DNA of 64,000 nucleotides. Origin: Patescibacteria group bacterium. Lineage in GTDB: Bacteria > Patescibacteriota > Patescibacteriia > UBA2591 > JAQUPP01. Of the stretch, positions 11,441 through 48,695 are shown piece by piece. The position numbers were made by a program, and so were the translations under genes. Under the pieces are notes generated by a model. That model worked only from the letters and a program-made list of their open reading frames with translations, was not told where the DNA came from and did no database searches. Within the stretch, counting starts at the first letter, position 1. Every line of letters begins with the position of its first letter. Location: positions 413,046 to 477,045 of the forward strand of contig JAQUPP010000001.1 in the NCBI GenBank assembly GCA_028716665.1. Direction: 5' to 3'.

Positions 11441-11473
11441 ATCATTTTGTTAAGACCTGCTTAAAGTTTTAAT

Positions 11474-11544
11474 TGCGGGGGGGGGATTCGAACCCCCAAC
11501 CTCCAGGTTATGGGCCTGGCGAGCTGCCACTGCTCTACCCCGCG
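11474..11544 (-). tRNA. initiator tRNA-fMet (CAT)
   Basis: Begins CGCGGGG and ends CCCCGCA-A (C1:A72 mismatch); alignable base for base with E. coli tRNA-fMet; anticodon CAT. Confidence 0.8.
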
Positions 11545-11795
11545 TCATTAAGAAATCGATTAGTTATTCTTTTCTTTTCCAAATATCCTTTTGTCGATTT
11601 TAGAAAATATTCTCTTTTATAAGCTTCGTTTTTATCGGAATATTCTTCATGATAGACTAACTTCCATGGTCGGCGAAATTTTGTCGCCCAATCTTTGCCA
11701 CGTTGATGTTCACTAAATCTTCTCTGTAAGTTAGATGTGCAACCGATATAAAATTTATTATCTTTTAAACTTTGTAATATATAAACGTAATACAC
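11535..11795 (-). CDS. GIY-YIG nuclease family protein (small, YhbQ/UPF0213-like), copy 1
   Basis: VYIL...KFYIGCT...R..EH motif set. GTG start. The last 10 nt including the stop overlap the 5' end of tRNA-fMet. Confidence 0.8.
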   Translation of the reverse strand: MYYVYILQSLKDNKFYIGCTSNLQRRFSEHQRGKDWATKFRRPWKLVYHEEYSDKNEAYKREYFLKSTKGYLEKKRITNRFLNDAG

Positions 11796-11808
11796 AATAG
11801 ATTTTAAT

Positions 11809-11867
11809 TTATGGGCCTGGCGAGACCCGAAGGGTGGCCCTTGGCCCTGCCACTGCTCTACCCCGCG
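11809..11867 (-). repeat. partial duplicate of tRNA-fMet (positions 1-37) carrying a 22-nt GC-rich double-hairpin insertion
   Basis: CGCGGGGTAGAGCAGTGGCAG-[GGCCAAGGGCCACCCTTCGGGT]-CTCGCCAGGCCCATAA, then divergence from the tRNA. Confidence 0.7.
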
Positions 11868-12118
11868 TCATTAAGAAATCGATTAGTTATTCTTTTCTTT
11901 TCCAAATATCCTTTTGTCGATTTTAGAAAATATTCTCTTTTATAAGCTTCATTTTTATCTGAATATTCTTCATGATAGACTAACTTCCATGGTCGGCGAA
12001 ATTTTGTCGCCCAATCTTTGCCACGTTGATGTTCATTAAATCTTCTCTGCAAATTAGATGTGCAACCGATATAAAATTTATTATCTTTTAAACTTTGTAA
12101 TATATAAACGTAATACAC
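11858..12118 (-). CDS. GIY-YIG nuclease family protein, copy 2 (tandem 323-bp unit)
   Basis: One amino-acid difference from copy 1. Its 3' end overlaps the partial tRNA copy just as copy 1 overlaps the intact tRNA. Confidence 0.8.
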   Translation of the reverse strand: MYYVYILQSLKDNKFYIGCTSNLQRRFNEHQRGKDWATKFRRPWKLVYHEEYSDKNEAYKREYFLKSTKGYLEKKRITNRFLNDAG

Positions 12119-12131
12119 AATAGATTTTAAT

Positions 12132-12190
12132 CTATGGGCCTGGCGAGACCCGAAGGGTGGCCCTTGGCCCTGCCACTGCTCTACCCCGCG
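12132..12190 (-). repeat. second partial tRNA-fMet 5'-half copy with the same 22-nt insertion
   Basis: Same sequence as 11809-11867 apart from one substitution in the anticodon loop; no GIY-YIG gene follows. Confidence 0.7.
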
Positions 12191-12240
12191 TCATTAATCT
12201 ATAATGATACCTTAAATTTAATATTTCAGCAAATTGAATT

Positions 12241-21665: not shown

Positions 21666-22391
21666 ATGGATCTTTTAAAATCATTTATATTGGCAGTATT
21701 TATTGTTTCAATACCAAAGATATTAGAGGGAATGAGTTGGGTTCTTGCGTATATGGAAGTATTCATGAAATATTGGGTTTTTAGGCCGATTTATTACAAT
21801 CAGGTTTCTCGTCGACTTTATCCCAGACAAAATCGGAAACTGAAAAAATATCTGAGAAATTCACCGGTTTTTTCCAAGCTTTTGGCTTATGCCACATTAA
21901 ATGGGATAAAAGTGGAGAAGGGATGTTCTCGCAATCCTAACTGTGATTGGTCTGCTTGTACTTCAATCAGTACAGTTAAAGTTTACAATGTTAATGATGT
22001 TTATAGATTTAAACGTCAAGAAGAGGGGGTTTATTCTTTCGCGCACGAAATAGGGCATATTGAATTTCACAGAAATAAACCTACTCCAAAATGTTGGGAT
22101 GAGATGGAAAAAATTGAAGATCCTCCGCTCAGTTTTAAAGAAAAACTTGAAGCCTGGATAAAGAAAGATTCTGACAAATCTTGCGGATGTTTTTGGGACG
22201 AGTGGATGGGGTGGATATATGGTTATAATGCTCTCAGATCCGCGGGCGTGCCAATTAATGAAAAAAAATATTGGCGAATTGCTTTGAATTGTATTCCCCA
22301 ACATGAAGTTTGTCCTCTTTGGCCATTCGGATGCGAAAAGTTTAACGCCATTCAAACTCTAGAGAAGAAATATAGAGAAAAATTAAAATAA
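21666..22391 (+). CDS. membrane-anchored ImmA/IrrE family metallopeptidase (HEIGH)
   Basis: Paralogue of the preceding gene with an intact HExxH (FAHEIGHIEFH); Cys-rich C-terminal region. Confidence 0.5.
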   Translation: MDLLKSFILAVFIVSIPKILEGMSWVLAYMEVFMKYWVFRPIYYNQVSRRLYPRQNRKLKKYLRNSPVFSKLLAYATLNGIKVEKGCSRNPNCDWSACTSISTVKVYNVNDVYRFKRQEEGVYSFAHEIGHIEFHRNKPTPKCWDEMEKIEDPPLSFKEKLEAWIKKDSDKSCGCFWDEWMGWIYGYNALRSAGVPINEKKYWRIALNCIPQHEVCPLWPFGCEKFNAIQTLEKKYREKLK

Positions 22392-22553
22392 AAAGCCTCC
22401 TGAATTATAGGGGGCTTTTTTATATTATAATAATGCATTAATTTAAAAATTGGTCTTGACATTTTTGAAAAAATATGCTACAATAATATCAATACTGAGA
22501 AAGTTTTTGGCATAAAGCCAATGATTTAAAACTCGGTATAAATGGGGGAAACG

Positions 22554-23210
22554 ATGGATAAAAAATCTATCGGCGCAGAAACGGCCAAATTGGCTGGTCT
22601 GCATATGGACTGCAATATGAAGATCAAAGATCTTCAACTCGGTTTAGACGAATATGAATGTTTTCTAAACCTGACTTCAGAACAGCGTCAACAAGCCTTA
22701 GCACCTTTCAAAAAGGATTCGCGCTTCAAATTGGCTAATGCGTTTGAAATTGTCGTGCCAAAGGGGTATGACCACGCCACTCGTTTGACTGTTTTCAAAG
22801 CAACACACGGTAAAGAGTTTTATTATTACAATCCTGAAATCACTGACAAGAATTTTGATAAAGCGACGACAAAACTTTTACCCGGTCGGAAATTTAAAGT
22901 AAAAGTTTTTCAGATTACGGAAACAGTAAATTCAGAGGACTGTTTGAAATTTCTCAAAACGCAGAAAGCTGTTTTAACCGGAGCTCAGGGCGCGTCATTG
23001 GTTTATGAACTTGCCAAAAACAAGTTGCCAAAGGGCCATTGGTATATTTCATTTGATAAGAAAGATTCTCTTTGGATTGAATCTGGCGGTGTTCACCGCG
23101 TGCCGGGCGTCTTCCGCCGCTCGGATGGCGACTTCGAGTTCTACCTCGGCAACTTTGAGCATGGCTGGGACGACGACTGCTGCTTGCTCTGCTTCTGCGA
23201 CTGTGATTGA
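22554..23210 (+). CDS. hypothetical protein with GC-rich 3' end encoding a Cys-rich tail
   Basis: SD GGGGGAAACG-ATG. The last ~125 nt is conspicuously GC-rich and encodes ...GWDDDCCLLCFCDCD; terminator hairpin follows. Confidence 0.45.
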   Translation: MDKKSIGAETAKLAGLHMDCNMKIKDLQLGLDEYECFLNLTSEQRQQALAPFKKDSRFKLANAFEIVVPKGYDHATRLTVFKATHGKEFYYYNPEITDKNFDKATTKLLPGRKFKVKVFQITETVNSEDCLKFLKTQKAVLTGAQGASLVYELAKNKLPKGHWYISFDKKDSLWIESGGVHRVPGVFRRSDGDFEFYLGNFEHGWDDDCCLLCFCDCD

Positions 23211-23286
23211 TTAGAAAATTAAATTCAGACCTCCTGTTTCGACAGGAGGTCTTTTTTATTTATAAAAAAAGTGTAGAATATTAATC

Positions 23287-23556
23287 ATGCCCGCCCAAAT
23301 TTTTTATTACGTATACATTTTGCGCAGTTTAAAAGATAGTAAATTTTATATTGGCTTTACAAAAGATTTAAGAAGAAGACTAGAAGAACACAATAATAAA
23401 ATGTCTACATCTACTAAATCAAGAGCGCCATTTACTTTGGTTTATTATGAAGCATATCTTCATTCAGGAGATGCCAAAGAACGAGAAAGATTTTTTAAAT
23501 CTGGGTGGGGTAGAAATTATATTAAAAAATCACTTAAACGTTATTTATGTCAATAA
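23287..23556 (+). CDS. GIY-YIG nuclease family protein, copy 3
   Basis: YYVYILRS...KFYIGFT motif set. The stop overlaps the murC start. Flanked by the two halves of a 34-nt palindrome. Confidence 0.8.
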   Translation: MPAQIFYYVYILRSLKDSKFYIGFTKDLRRRLEEHNNKMSTSTKSRAPFTLVYYEAYLHSGDAKERERFFKSGWGRNYIKKSLKRYLCQ

Positions 23557-25992: not shown

Positions 25993-26286
25993 ATGCCAGG
26001 TAGTGAAACTTTGATAACGATTATGTTTTATTATGTCTATGTTTTACAAAGTATAAAAAATAATGGCCTTTATGTGGGTTATACTTTAGATTTAAAGAAA
26101 AGATTACAAGAACATAATCGTAAATTAAATTTTTCTACCAAAGCAAATATCCCATGGAAACTTATTCACTATGAAGCCTATCTTAATAAAGACGATGCGC
26201 AACGTCGAGAGAAATATCTCAAAACTTCTCAAGGAGCCAGATTATTAAAGCGCATGCTTAAAGAATATTTTTATAATAATAAATAA
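25993..26286 (+). CDS. GIY-YIG nuclease family protein, copy 4 (between hrcA and grpE)
   Basis: MFYYVYVLQS...LYVGYT motif set; ATG embedded in the left terminal inverted repeat. Confidence 0.7.
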   Translation: MPGSETLITIMFYYVYVLQSIKNNGLYVGYTLDLKKRLQEHNRKLNFSTKANIPWKLIHYEAYLNKDDAQRREKYLKTSQGARLLKRMLKEYFYNNK

Positions 26287-26306
26287 TCAAAGTTCTACTA
26301 CCTGGT

Positions 26307-47291: not shown

Positions 47292-48092
47292 ATGTTATCC
47301 ATAATCATTGTTAATCACAATCATCGAAATTATTTAAAGCAATGTTTGAAAAATATTGTTGAGGCCAATATCAATCTTGATTTTGAGGTGATTATTATTG
47401 ATAATAATTCAAAAGATACAAGCAAAAAGTTTTTGTCAGAATTTAATATGCCGTCTCTAAAATTCAGAGTTATTTTAAATAATAAGAATTATGGTTTTGC
47501 CAAGGCTAATAATCAGGGGATTAAATTGGCTCAAGGAAAATATGTTTTAGTTTTAAATCCGGACGTGATTGTTTTAAAAGATTCAGTGGAAAAACTTTAT
47601 AAATTTTTAGGAGAAAATAATGAAGCGGCAATGGTTGGTCCCAAGCTTTTAAATCCCAACGGAACGATTCAGTATTCTTGTTGTAAATTTCCTTACTGGT
47701 ATATGCCGATTCTCCGCCGAACTTTTTTAGGGAAGCTTCCTTTTTTGAAAAATAAATTGGGTAAATATTTAATGTCAGATTGGAAACACAATGAAGCAAG
47801 AGAAGTGGATTGGCTTTTGGGCGCGGCCTTGATGATTAAAAAAGAAGTTTTGGAAAAAATCAATTATTTTGATGAAAGATTTTTTCTTTATTTCGAAGAC
47901 ACTGATTTAGCGAGACGGATTTGGAAATTCGGCAAGAAAGTTTATTACTTGCCAGAAGCTCAAATGTATCATTTTCATCAGCGGCTCTCGGCGGAACGCA
48001 GCGCCAGTCCGACTTTATTGTCCAGAATTACCTGGATTCATATTGCCAGCGGAATCAAATATTTTTGTAAATGGCTTAACCCTCGGCTGTAG
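47292..48092 (+). CDS. glycosyltransferase family 2
   Basis: LSIIIVNHN...DNNSKD...LVLNPD motifs; a GC-rich hairpin lies at its 3' end. Confidence 0.65.
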   Translation: MLSIIIVNHNHRNYLKQCLKNIVEANINLDFEVIIIDNNSKDTSKKFLSEFNMPSLKFRVILNNKNYGFAKANNQGIKLAQGKYVLVLNPDVIVLKDSVEKLYKFLGENNEAAMVGPKLLNPNGTIQYSCCKFPYWYMPILRRTFLGKLPFLKNKLGKYLMSDWKHNEAREVDWLLGAALMIKKEVLEKINYFDERFFLYFEDTDLARRIWKFGKKVYYLPEAQMYHFHQRLSAERSASPTLLSRITWIHIASGIKYFCKWLNPRL

Positions 48093-48207
48093 CCTTACGG
48101 GCGAAGAAAATAATTTGCCAAATTTTGAAAATTTGTTATAATAATTTTAATATTGCGGGATCGTCCCTCGGCCGTAGCCAGTAGGCTACTGCCTACGGGC
48201 GAGGCTA

Positions 48208-48462
48208 ATGGTAAATAAAACAATGCATACAATTTATGTTTTAAGAAGTCTGAAAGATGATAATTTATATATAGGCTGTACTTCTGATTTACAGAAGAGA
48301 TTAAGAGAACATAGAAATAAAAAAGTTTTTTCTACTCGCAATAGGTTGCCAATGAAGTTAATTTATTTTGAAAATTACCCTGATAAATATGAAGCTTATA
48401 GAATGGAAAGATTTTATAAAACCGCTAAAGGTAAAAAAATAATTAAAAACAAAATAATATAA
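48208..48462 (+). CDS. GIY-YIG nuclease family protein, copy 5 (immediately 5' of tRNA-Gln)
   Basis: IYVLRS...LYIGCT motif set; flanked by 12-nt direct repeats TGCGGGATCGTC. Confidence 0.75.
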   Translation: MVNKTMHTIYVLRSLKDDNLYIGCTSDLQKRLREHRNKKVFSTRNRLPMKLIYFENYPDKYEAYRMERFYKTAKGKKIIKNKII

Positions 48463-48469
48463 TAAATAA

Positions 48470-48545
48470 TGCGGGATCGTCTAATGGTAGGACTCCAGCC
48501 TTTGGAGCTGGCTATGATGGTTCGAATCCATCTCCCGCAGCCAAA
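48470..48545 (+). tRNA. tRNA-Gln (TTG)
   Basis: U1-A72 acceptor typical of bacterial tRNA-Gln, anticodon loop CTTTGGA, GGTTCGAATCC T-arm, encoded CCA. Confidence 0.8.
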
Positions 48546-48695
48546 AAAATAACCCTTTATTTAAGAGGTTATTTTTTTATGCCCCATCATGGATTAGTAG
48601 AATTTTTTTAAAAAAGGGGAGTAGTCTAACGAAAATTTACTTTTGATTTTTTTATAAATATGGTACTTTTGAATAAAAAATGATATTATAAGAAT

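Follow-up and report, generated by a model that had tools for sequence, protein, structure and literature searches.

A minimal GIY-YIG nuclease gene and a GC-rich palindrome at the 5' end of a patescibacterial tRNA-Gln gene: a candidate homing-type selfish cassette

Integrative elements that target tRNA genes rely on an integrase, and their att sites usually arise by duplication of the 3' part of the tRNA; the free-standing GIY-YIG open reading frames (ORFs) of fungal mitochondria insert at gene ends with partial duplication of the gene. Palindromic mini-elements include REP sequences with RAYT (REPtrons), the Rickettsia palindromic elements and the GC clusters of yeast mitochondria. Bacterial genomes commonly encode stand-alone GIY-YIG proteins of the UPF0213/YhbQ type, for which there are solved structures but no known role. 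The stand-alone Slx1-like domains of prokaryotes represent the minimal GIY-YIG form, and a GIY-YIG/TrmH fusion led the authors of that description to suggest an RNA role for them (PMC1564403). SLX1 itself is a structure-specific nuclease, and no function or genomic behavior of stand-alone UPF0213/Slx1-like proteins was found described in the searchable open-access literature.

Here, we analyzed a stretch of 64,000 nucleotides (nt; hereafter the 64-kb window) from a Patescibacteria group bacterium (GCA_028716665.1, contig JAQUPP010000001.1, positions 413,046 to 477,045 of the forward strand), which is AT-rich (~34% GC) and contains five diverged GIY-YIG copies. One of them lies immediately upstream of a tRNA-Gln gene and is preceded by a duplicate of the 5' part of that gene (the stub), which is split by a GC-rich palindrome (Table 1). 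We consider it somewhat more likely than not, at roughly 55%, that the 316-nt block holding these parts is a homing-type selfish GIY-YIG cassette plus a palindromic element at the 5' end of tRNA-Gln, a reading that is drawn from sequence comparison. A note made earlier from the letters of the window (the original prediction) had described a GIY-YIG gene between two 12-nt copies of the tRNA start; both copies of TGCGGGATCGTC, the tRNA, the palindrome and the ORF were located where it had placed them.

The tRNA-Gln locus and its empty counterpart

Exactly two copies of TGCGGGATCGTC are present in the window, one in the stub and the other at the tRNA start (48470-48481), and the chance expectation for such a match in the window, with one mismatch allowed, is ~0.07. 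Moreover, the split stub recurs in 31 distinct metagenomic contexts (among the matches listed) and in the nearest homologous loci, and chance is therefore excluded. The 12-nt duplicate is thus real, but it is only the first part of a longer one: because the tRNA match restarts right after the palindrome with CTAATGGTA, the full duplicate comprises 20 nt (nt 1-12 and nt 12-20), split by the 39-nt palindrome. The hairpin had been considered fused to the repeat; instead, it interrupts the repeat as a separate element, which has at least 76 solo contexts and differs in position among sister loci. A second copy of nt 1-20 at the right end of the insert keeps the tRNA-Gln gene whole, and no 3' tRNA fragment, as an element carrying the whole tRNA would predict, was found downstream of tRNA-Gln in the window. 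The tRNA begins 7 nt after the GIY-YIG stop codon rather than the 8 nt given originally.

The ORF product matches Pfam PF01541 over residues 6-76 of 84 (E = 1.2e-15, with 58 bits where the cut-off is 22.6) and is a bare catalytic core with the N-terminus MHTIYVLRS from the ATG at 48223. This start (ATGCAT) is conserved in relatives, and the ATG at 48208 falls within the duplicated D-loop sequence. In an alignment of the five window proteins, as had been proposed, the presumed catalytic residues proved invariant: Y10, Y21, G23, R31, H35 and E67, which we take to be the GIY-YIG catalytic set, are shared by all five and align with the UPF0213 structures. The closest structures in the PDB are the UPF0213 proteins 1ZG2 (E = 7.7e-7) and 1YWL (1.8e-4), followed by SLX1, and the NCBIfam model for the N-terminus of group I intron endonucleases stayed below its threshold (23 vs 56 bits). 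Judged by these matches, the protein is of the stand-alone Slx1/UPF0213-type branch and not UvrC or I-TevI like.

A search with the protein of the upstream GT2 gene returned a 92% identical sequence (P0001), and the source records of the GT2 homologues label them Patescibacteria. In the contig encoding it (L003), the GT2 stop is followed by a 56-nt promoter-like spacer and a tRNA-Gln identical to that of the window, and a three-way alignment revealed no ORF, stub or hairpins between the two genes. The empty site that the original prediction had suggested looking for therefore exists, and the 316-nt block (48166-48481 or, equivalently, 48154-48469) is an insertion/deletion polymorphism. A sister genome from the GTDB species set (JBAZMD010000001.1, L007) is filled and has the same architecture, with a GIY-YIG protein that is 90% identical; the idea of an inserted GIY-YIG unit agrees with this contrast between the empty L003 and the filled window and L007. 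The ORFs of the window and L007 share 94% nucleotide identity with a ratio of nonsynonymous to synonymous substitution rates (dN/dS) of 0.24, and the ORF is therefore maintained as a gene, under purifying selection. In the GT2 region, L007 and L003 are 91.7% identical to each other and their identities to the window are 90.4% and 89.8%, so that the three are about equidistant. By these comparisons the block comes and goes, whether the empty site is ancestral or the result of loss. No filled allele without the hairpin was found among the contigs examined, and contigs with an identical GIY-YIG protein come from the same strain only (GCA_028690995.1, contig JAQVAD010000009.1, with an identical locus sequence).

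Table 1. Coordinates of features at the tRNA-Gln locus and of the tRNA-fMet array (positions in the 64-kb window)
Feature	Position	Strand	Remarks
GT2 gene	47292-48092	+	Stop codon TAG at 48090-48092
Short-form GC palindromic element	48076-48106	+	Core 48081-48106, CCTCGGCTGTAG-CC-TTACGGGCGAAG; in last GT2 codons; identified by arm matches
Sigma-70-type promoter	48115-48142	+	TTGCCA-16 nt-(TG)TATAAT; 11/12 consensus matches, extended -10 TG
Stub part 1	48154-48165	+	TGCGGGATCGTC, exact tRNA-Gln nt 1-12
Long-form GC palindromic element	48166-48204	+	39 nt, CCTCGGCCGTAGCCAGTAGGCTACTGCCTACGGGCGAGG
Stub part 2	48205-48213	+	CTAATGGTA, tRNA-Gln nt 12-20, ending in D loop
GIY-YIG nuclease ORF	48208 (84 aa) or conserved ATG 48223 (79 aa) to 48462	+	Pfam PF01541
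Intact tRNA-Gln(UUG)	48470-48543	+	ARAGORN; Rfam 63.4 bits
AT-rich terminator-like hairpin with T run	48543-48578	+	Inverted repeat; conserved in L003 and L007
tRNA-fMet array	11473-12210	-	Two near-identical stub + ~82-aa ORF units

The AT-rich hairpin behind tRNA-Gln was not called by the consensus terminator scan. The empty allele has it too, and the insertion therefore does not reach beyond the tRNA. On the other side, the -10 box ends 11 nt before the stub, and the promoter is 94% identical in L007; it is presumably the original tRNA-Gln promoter and could now drive the stub, hairpin, ORF and tRNA as a single transcript. The sequence TATAATAA was also observed 6 nt 5' of tRNA-Gln (48454-48469, the last ORF codons and the spacer) and resembles the TATAATAA 5' of the stub. 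It may be that the -10 box was duplicated as well, which would leave tRNA-Gln with its own promoter. In two independent assemblies of the genotype represented by L003 (L001 and L002), the contigs end ~35 nt past the GT2 stop, inside a tandem TGTTATAAT promoter repeat before the tRNA; these breaks may come from the repeat or from a mix of filled and empty alleles.

A further GIY-YIG copy of the window, at 23287, has its murC side syntenic in the sister genome L063 (90.6% identity), where an indel of ~0.9 kb was observed just upstream of the cassette (window 21908-23248 vs L063 994-1462). The cassettes at 48208 and 23287 are both kept in a sister genome.

A group I intron or split tRNA was rejected as an account of the locus: Rfam detected the intact tRNA and no ribozyme, even at E <= 1, and the insert is taken up by the ORF, with a complete tRNA behind it. 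The 316-nt insert holds only the GIY-YIG ORF and no tyrosine or serine recombinase gene. A phage origin was likewise rejected, the hairpin pattern having 0 matches in viral contigs.

Relatives at other tRNA genes and beyond

When the five window copies were aligned and used as the query, 80 homologous loci (230 kb in total) were retrieved, which come from many phyla. All of the tRNA genes in these loci (70/70) lie on the strand of the ORF, 59 of them within 400 nt of it, and in 26 of the 80 loci a tRNA starts at most 80 nt downstream of the ORF. The nearest homologues (54-90% identity) are without exception (9/9) located 0-43 nt upstream of tRNA-Gln or tRNA-Glu. Stubs upstream of the ORF were also found for tRNA-Ser, Trp, Phe, His, Pro, Met and Tyr; they cover nt 1-37 of tRNA-Ser(CGA/UGA) in six deltaproteobacterial loci, nt 1-36 of tRNA-Trp, nt 1-51 of tRNA-His, nt 1-18 of tRNA-Phe, nt 1-13 of tRNA-Pro (twice) and nt 1-15 of tRNA-Met. 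The tRNA-Asn lineages are a mirror image, with the intact tRNA upstream and a 3' fragment downstream. In every lineage, GC-rich hairpins of a lineage-specific type interrupt or end the stub; those of the Ser stubs form a double hairpin (CCCGGCATGCGCCGGGCG + TCCGGCGAATGCCGGACG) in the anticodon loop.

The tRNA-fMet array of the window follows the same plan, as had been predicted. Each of its two units consists of tRNA nt 1-21, a 22-nt GC insert (GGCCAAGGGCCACCCTTCGGGT) and nt 22-37, followed by the ORF, and the array leads into an intact tRNA-Met (11544-11473) and a second tRNA-Met (11441-11368). The GC insert does not qualify as a strong hairpin, since its fold is no better than that of shuffled sequence (z = +0.2).

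Two further observations concern these tRNA-linked loci. In several non-Gln lineages (L036, L051, L059, L062, L067, L073, L030, L023 and L019), the intact tRNA is followed at a distance of 100-350 nt by 3' tRNA fragments such as the last 21 nt with the CCA end, in some cases two of them; a whole tRNA may belong to the mobile unit there, or other elements may hit the same tRNA. In addition, bins labeled as archaeal contain a tRNA-Gln-type cassette (L009, Woesearchaeota) and an inverted-repeat-type copy (L027, archaeon), which reflect either cross-domain spread or binning contamination.

Comparison of stubs with resident tRNAs revealed that in 20 of 30 loci the 12-mer of the stub is the same as in the resident tRNA, in 7 sequence variants that include tRNA-Glu, and that in tRNA-Glu loci the sequence is Glu-type on both sides of the hairpin. 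On these matches, the stub is derived from the target in a broad sense, or is homogenized to it, which speaks for the original prediction. The mismatches between stub and tRNA fall on both sides of the hairpin without asymmetry and therefore do not separate homing from in-situ duplication. In most Gln/Glu loci the duplicate starts 0-3 nt before tRNA nt 1, and some other loci (L058, L045 and L034) have duplicates with 11 to 40 or more nt of upstream flank. Most loci of the Gln/Glu lineage have a stub that ends at nt 20-29, and in one sub-lineage its end is nt 13; over all lineages stub lengths range from 11 to 51 nt (e.g. 13, 15, 18, 36, 37 and 51). Since the ends span nt 13-29 within one lineage, a fixed staggered cut is ruled out. 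The 12-nt target-site duplication of the original prediction does not hold, the duplicate being 20 nt here and variable in length within and across lineages; a duplication of fixed length, as in a transposon or insertion sequence, was rejected on the same ground. No terminal inverted repeats were found at both ends of the 48154-48469 copy.

The family also occurs away from tRNA genes. In ~17 of 43 loci without a nearby tRNA, from many phyla, the ORF is bracketed by the inverted repeat TTTACCCCGT(G/T)AGATA...TATCT(C/A)ACGGGGTAAA, the arms of which vary in a compensatory manner (G>T with C>A; G>A with C>T). The repeat lies ~5-40 nt on either side of the ORF (L020, L021, L024, L027, L028, L031, L033, L040, L052, L053, L055, L069, L077, L081 and L083), and L055 has additional solo arm pairs without an ORF. 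Their layout suggests a second class of this element that is transposon-like or holds the ORF in the loop of a hairpin. The window itself contains a bracketed copy as well: the ORF at 26023-26286 lies between hrcA-like and grpE-like genes with no tRNA nearby, within a 19-nt inverted repeat (CCAGGTAGTGAAACTTTGA, 25996-26014; TCAAAGTTCTACTACCTGG, 26287-26305), and a related motif (CCCGGTAGTGAA) is present in L078.

Stub geometry and the bracketing repeats bear on an explanation that we regard as unlikely, namely cut-and-insert transposition with a structure-defined target duplication, which generalizes the target-site duplication of the original prediction. An Slx1-like nuclease would cut a cloverleaf-extruded tRNA gene at its structural junctions, one strand at the foot of the acceptor stem and the other in a loop, and ligation and fill-in would then duplicate the segment from nt 1 to the loop. 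Such a process agrees with the start of most Gln/Glu duplicates 0-3 nt from tRNA nt 1, with stub ends in or near loops (D loop nt 20-21 here; anticodon loop nt 35-38 in Ser, fMet and Trp), with stubs that match the resident tRNA, Glu type on both hairpin sides included, and with the structure specificity of SLX1 relatives, and the conserved inverted repeats with compensatory changes around other family members resemble transposon ends. However, many of the stub ends between nt 13 and nt 29 of a single lineage lie outside loops, and the upstream flanks of 11 to 40 or more nt in L058, L045 and L034 do not fit. Neither conserved cassette ends nor a ligation function are evident, and a protein of 84 amino acids would need to do everything. 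Moreover, tandem arrays with identical hairpins imply the copying of whole units, not a fresh duplication followed by a fresh hairpin.

Such arrays, made of full and deleted units with identical hairpins, were found in L101/L136 and L091. ORF-deleted relics, which lost the ORF by internal deletion, are also present; examples are L126, in which ATGCATATAG is joined directly with AAAATTGAAAG, and the second unit of L101. Decay, arrays and patchy presence are traces that a selfish gene would leave and are unexpected for a housekeeping factor. It is improbable in our view that the element is currently immobile and the nuclease a tRNA-linked host factor, for example of tRNA or RNA metabolism, co-transcribed with tRNAs, with the stub and hairpin as a 5' leader that stabilizes or regulates the mRNA and the differences between genomes as ordinary deletion. 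A host role could account for the strict co-orientation of the ORF with tRNA genes just downstream, for the purifying selection on the ORF, for the retention of the 48208 and 23287 cassettes in a sister genome and for a GC hairpin between promoter and ORF in every lineage, and the RNA role suggested from the GIY-YIG/TrmH fusion (PMC1564403) points the same way. It sits poorly, however, with five diverged copies in 64 kb, with the relics and arrays, and with family members in many phyla that lie away from tRNAs between conserved inverted repeats. The hairpin also occurs in protein-coding genes in both orientations and so is not a device at the RNA level, and in L003 an identical tRNA functions without the cassette.

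The palindromic element family

The 39-nt palindrome folds as a 16-bp stem with two symmetric mismatches, and a 62-nt stretch containing it has a folding energy of -28.4 kcal/mol (z-score -2.4). Its arms, CCTCGGCCGTAG and CTACGGGCGAGG, form a conserved G.G mismatch; it lies directly behind C12 of the stub, and one extra C (48205) comes after it. We also considered it as an intrinsic terminator and rejected this, as no T run follows and none was called in the scan. In the Gln/Glu lineage, the arms CCTCGGCCGTAG and CTA(C/T)GGGCGAGG are invariant, the center is variable and the neighboring stub bases have decayed. The same arms, at the same position after stub nt 12 and likewise oriented as the ORF, were found in L007, L008, L010-L015 and L017, and in a sub-lineage (L009, L108 and L157) the hairpin is inverted at nt 4/5 and the ORF is joined at nt 13. 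Among the 80 loci, the arms CCTCGGCCGTAG...CTAYGGGCGAGG are absent from those of other GIY-YIG lineages.

A pattern scan of metagenome contigs returned at least 120 stretches (L087-L206). Among the matches listed, which also limit the counts of solo copies below, at least 31 distinct contexts are D arms, 21 of the 31 with the ORF present, and at least 76 are solo contexts. The solo copies have a C at -1 in 76/76 and at +1 in 74/76, and comparison with the empty tRNA indicates that insertion adds the element and one C (GTC/TAA becomes GTC-element-C-TAA). Element sizes range from 26 to 53 nt; the main solo classes have 26 nt, the commonest, and 53 nt, and lengthen the host sequence by 27 and 54 nt. 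Of 52 solo copies checked, at least 19 are in-frame insertions in long ORFs, where in either orientation they add 9 or 18 codons (such as LGRSPTGEA, ASPVGLRPR and LARRATAEG), on contigs of 34-66% GC; examples are L089, L094, L100, L111, L115, L120, L122, L135, L146 and L153. Further copies lie in tRNA T loops (L017 and L106) and in tandem beside the ORF (four identical in L093, two in L013 and two in L141).

Recent gains can be seen among the sister genomes. A 27-nt hairpin copy that L007 and L003 both lack is present in the window at the last GT2 codons, where it changes the C-terminus from KWRGK or KWRK to KWLNPRL and supplies the stop codon TAG; its boundaries are uncertain by a few nt, as GGCGAGG is already found at the native junction in L007. 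L007 alone has a 26-nt copy nested within the long hairpin. Hairpin copies are thus gained independently within ~10% sequence divergence. The GT2-end copy had been noticed as a second hairpin half overlapping the stop; the overlap (48081-48106) is correct, whereas the copy is a diverged but complete 26-nt short form. As a structured element it was rejected, being no better than shuffled sequence (z = -0.3), and it is recognizable by its sequence family alone.

From its dispersal, the hairpin would be a separate mobile element with a family of its own. Its invariant arms, fixed polarity, local multiplication and lineage specificity, together with the position of both window copies within 130 nt of the 48208 ORF, argue that nuclease lineage and palindrome are functionally paired, by analogy with RAYT and REP. 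Alternatively, the hairpin could be an independent miniature palindromic element, moved by another enzyme or by host repair with no tie to the nuclease, and present in the stubs through chance inheritance from the ancestor of the Gln/Glu cassettes. We hold this to be rather doubtful, if somewhat less so than transposition. In its favor, 68 of the 76 solo copies have no GIY-YIG gene in the fetched flank, some solo contigs have 59-66% GC, unlike the AT-rich hosts of the cassette, and both orientations relative to host ORFs are represented among the solo copies. Against this stand the arms, which are invariant in all cassette loci while the adjoining stub bases decay, and the Glu stubs with Glu flanks, which imply that the hairpin entered again or is maintained. 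It also multiplies in tandem and nests beside the gene, both copies of the 64-kb window lie less than 130 nt from the ORF, and other GIY-YIG lineages have their own hairpin type at the equivalent place.

The same hairpin comparisons bear on a further idea, that the transcript of stub and hairpin is a guide or scaffold RNA whose base pairing directs the nuclease to tRNA genes. The stub is indeed identical in sequence to the coding strand of the tRNA and adjoins a structured element that is invariant, and the protein has no DNA-binding domain of its own. The stubs of L008, L012 and L128 are, however, degenerate relative to any tRNA, the sequence and position of the hairpin are wholly different in other lineages, and solo hairpins lack guide-like flanks. 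RNA guidance of GIY-YIG enzymes is without precedent as far as we know, and we consider this explanation highly improbable.

Proposed mechanism and comparison with known systems

In the homing reading, the cassette would have two components: a minimal free-standing GIY-YIG gene between the leftover stub (nt 1-20) and the complete tRNA, and a 39-nt palindrome plus one C inserted after C12 of the dispensable stub, with a short copy in GT2. The nuclease would break or nick the D-arm region of a cassette-free tRNA-Gln/Glu gene, probably near nt 12/13. This position recurs, as the site of the hairpin in the main lineage and as the ORF junction of L009/L108, which suggests that the break site, as far as we infer it from these junctions, lies there. 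Repair from a filled copy would use tRNA sequence as homology, with the stub as the left arm and the intact tRNA as the right arm, and would copy the cassette in, rebuild the tRNA and leave the stub; repeated events or unequal exchange could produce the tandem arrays. The stub, hairpin, ORF and tRNA would be co-transcribed from the tRNA promoter, and tRNA processing would release the tRNA. The hairpin would be a non-autonomous partner that is recognized or mobilized by the same nuclease lineage; it would enter beside a C, add one C, land preferentially near the gene, and survive where it is tolerated, in stubs, at gene ends and in-frame inside genes.

Several points weigh against this reading. 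We infer both the cleavage by the nuclease and the movement of the cassette from sequence. No extra or DNA-binding domain is recognizable in the protein, as the Pfam domain covers nearly the whole of its 79-84 amino acids. The intact tRNA of the filled allele is identical to that of the empty site and only the stub copy is disrupted, by the hairpin, so that nothing obvious would protect the filled allele from its own nuclease. Very short arms would have to provide the homology, with 12 + 8 nt on the left. As L007 and L003 are marginally the closest pair, the empty site may be a precise loss and not ancestral. The hairpins of the Ser lineage leave a perfect repeat of 35-37 nt unbroken, and breaking the direct repeat is therefore not their general role. 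A GIY-YIG gene is present in the fetched flank of only 8 of the 76 solo hairpins. Finally, the Glu-type sequence on both sides of the hairpin makes a local target duplication simpler than the import of a Gln unit. We rank break-repair homing first and local target duplication with later hairpin entry second on the sequences at hand, and the data do not decide between them: the former fits the arrays with identical hairpins because the whole unit including the hairpin would be copied, with a stub that would tend to match the recipient, and the latter fits the Glu loci.

More tentatively, and with odds that we put below even, the GIY-YIG cores of 80-90 amino acids in UPF0213/COG2827 could be the nucleases of an unrecognized two-component class of mobile DNA. 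Each nuclease lineage would recognize and spread its own short GC-rich palindrome, the autonomous copies would reside in tRNA genes rebuilt by partial duplication or in the loop of their own palindrome, and the palindromes would also colonize protein-coding genes in-frame. Such elements would be among the smallest autonomous mobile elements known, a GIY-YIG counterpart of REP/RAYT.

The locus and its relatives suggest that many UPF0213/YhbQ-type proteins are selfish genes at tRNA genes, accompanied by protein-inserting palindromes. If this is true, the rebuilt tRNA would make the cassette harmless and the tRNA promoter would provide its expression; recurrent tRNA pseudo-fragments in reduced genomes such as those of Patescibacteria would be explained, as might be the contig breaks beside some loci. 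A GIY-YIG-based system would join the known pairs of nuclease and palindrome, a new source of protein inserts of 9 and 18 codons would be recognized, and the D arm of tRNA-Gln/Glu genes and the CCTCGGCCGTAG...CTAYGGGCGAGG hairpin would offer concrete test substrates.

No description of the stub/hairpin/GIY-YIG design was found in the open-access literature, and a prior account elsewhere is possible; a recent survey of patescibacterial tRNA introns (PMC13011429) makes no reference to GIY-YIG genes, to hairpins or to duplicated fragments. The free-standing GIY-YIG genes of the T4 SegB type (PMC2330249; review PMC2988022) are similar in that they are located outside introns, lie beside tRNA genes, vary in presence among relatives and are presumed to spread by break repair with co-conversion of flanks. 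Seg proteins, however, exceed 200 amino acids and have DNA-binding domains, whereas the cassette protein is a bare Slx1/UPF0213 core of 79-84 amino acids. Unlike Seg genes, the cassette is bacterial-chromosomal, carries a duplicated 5' part of its target and a companion palindrome, and is known from sequence alone. Among the features of homing genes, it shows the presence/absence polymorphism and lacks a protected altered target and a DNA-binding module.

In the tRNA islands of the integrase type, a partial duplicate likewise rebuilds the tRNA and a displaced fragment remains at the other end. The cassette differs from them in having no integrase, in duplicating the 5' part in the Gln/Glu lineage and in its size of ~0.3 kb for the whole element. 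The mitochondrial GIY-YIG ORFs also preserve gene function through a duplicated segment and leave a displaced pseudogene fragment; they are larger enzymes that target organelle protein-coding genes, often by in-frame fusion, whereas the cassette targets bacterial tRNA genes.

With the palindromic mini-elements, the locus shares short GC-rich palindromes dispersed in an AT-rich genome. Rickettsia palindromic elements are also found as in-frame inserts in protein genes, but they have no sequence relationship to the present family and differ in size. As in REPtrons, the palindromes are concentrated near a small nuclease gene that could mobilize them; unlike in REPtrons, the candidate enzyme is a GIY-YIG core instead of a Y1 (HUH) transposase, and the palindromes are confined to one side of the gene, within the tRNA stub. 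The resemblance, as an analogy, would be one of function and not of membership. The UPF0213 proteins (1ZG2 and 1YWL; PMC1564403) agree in domain, size and conserved residues, and their descriptions (PMC1564403) do not mention a link to tRNA genes, stubs or hairpins. Taken system by system, the locus departs from each of those compared in at least one defining point, except from the GIY-YIG superfamily and its UPF0213/Slx1-like branch, to which it belongs.

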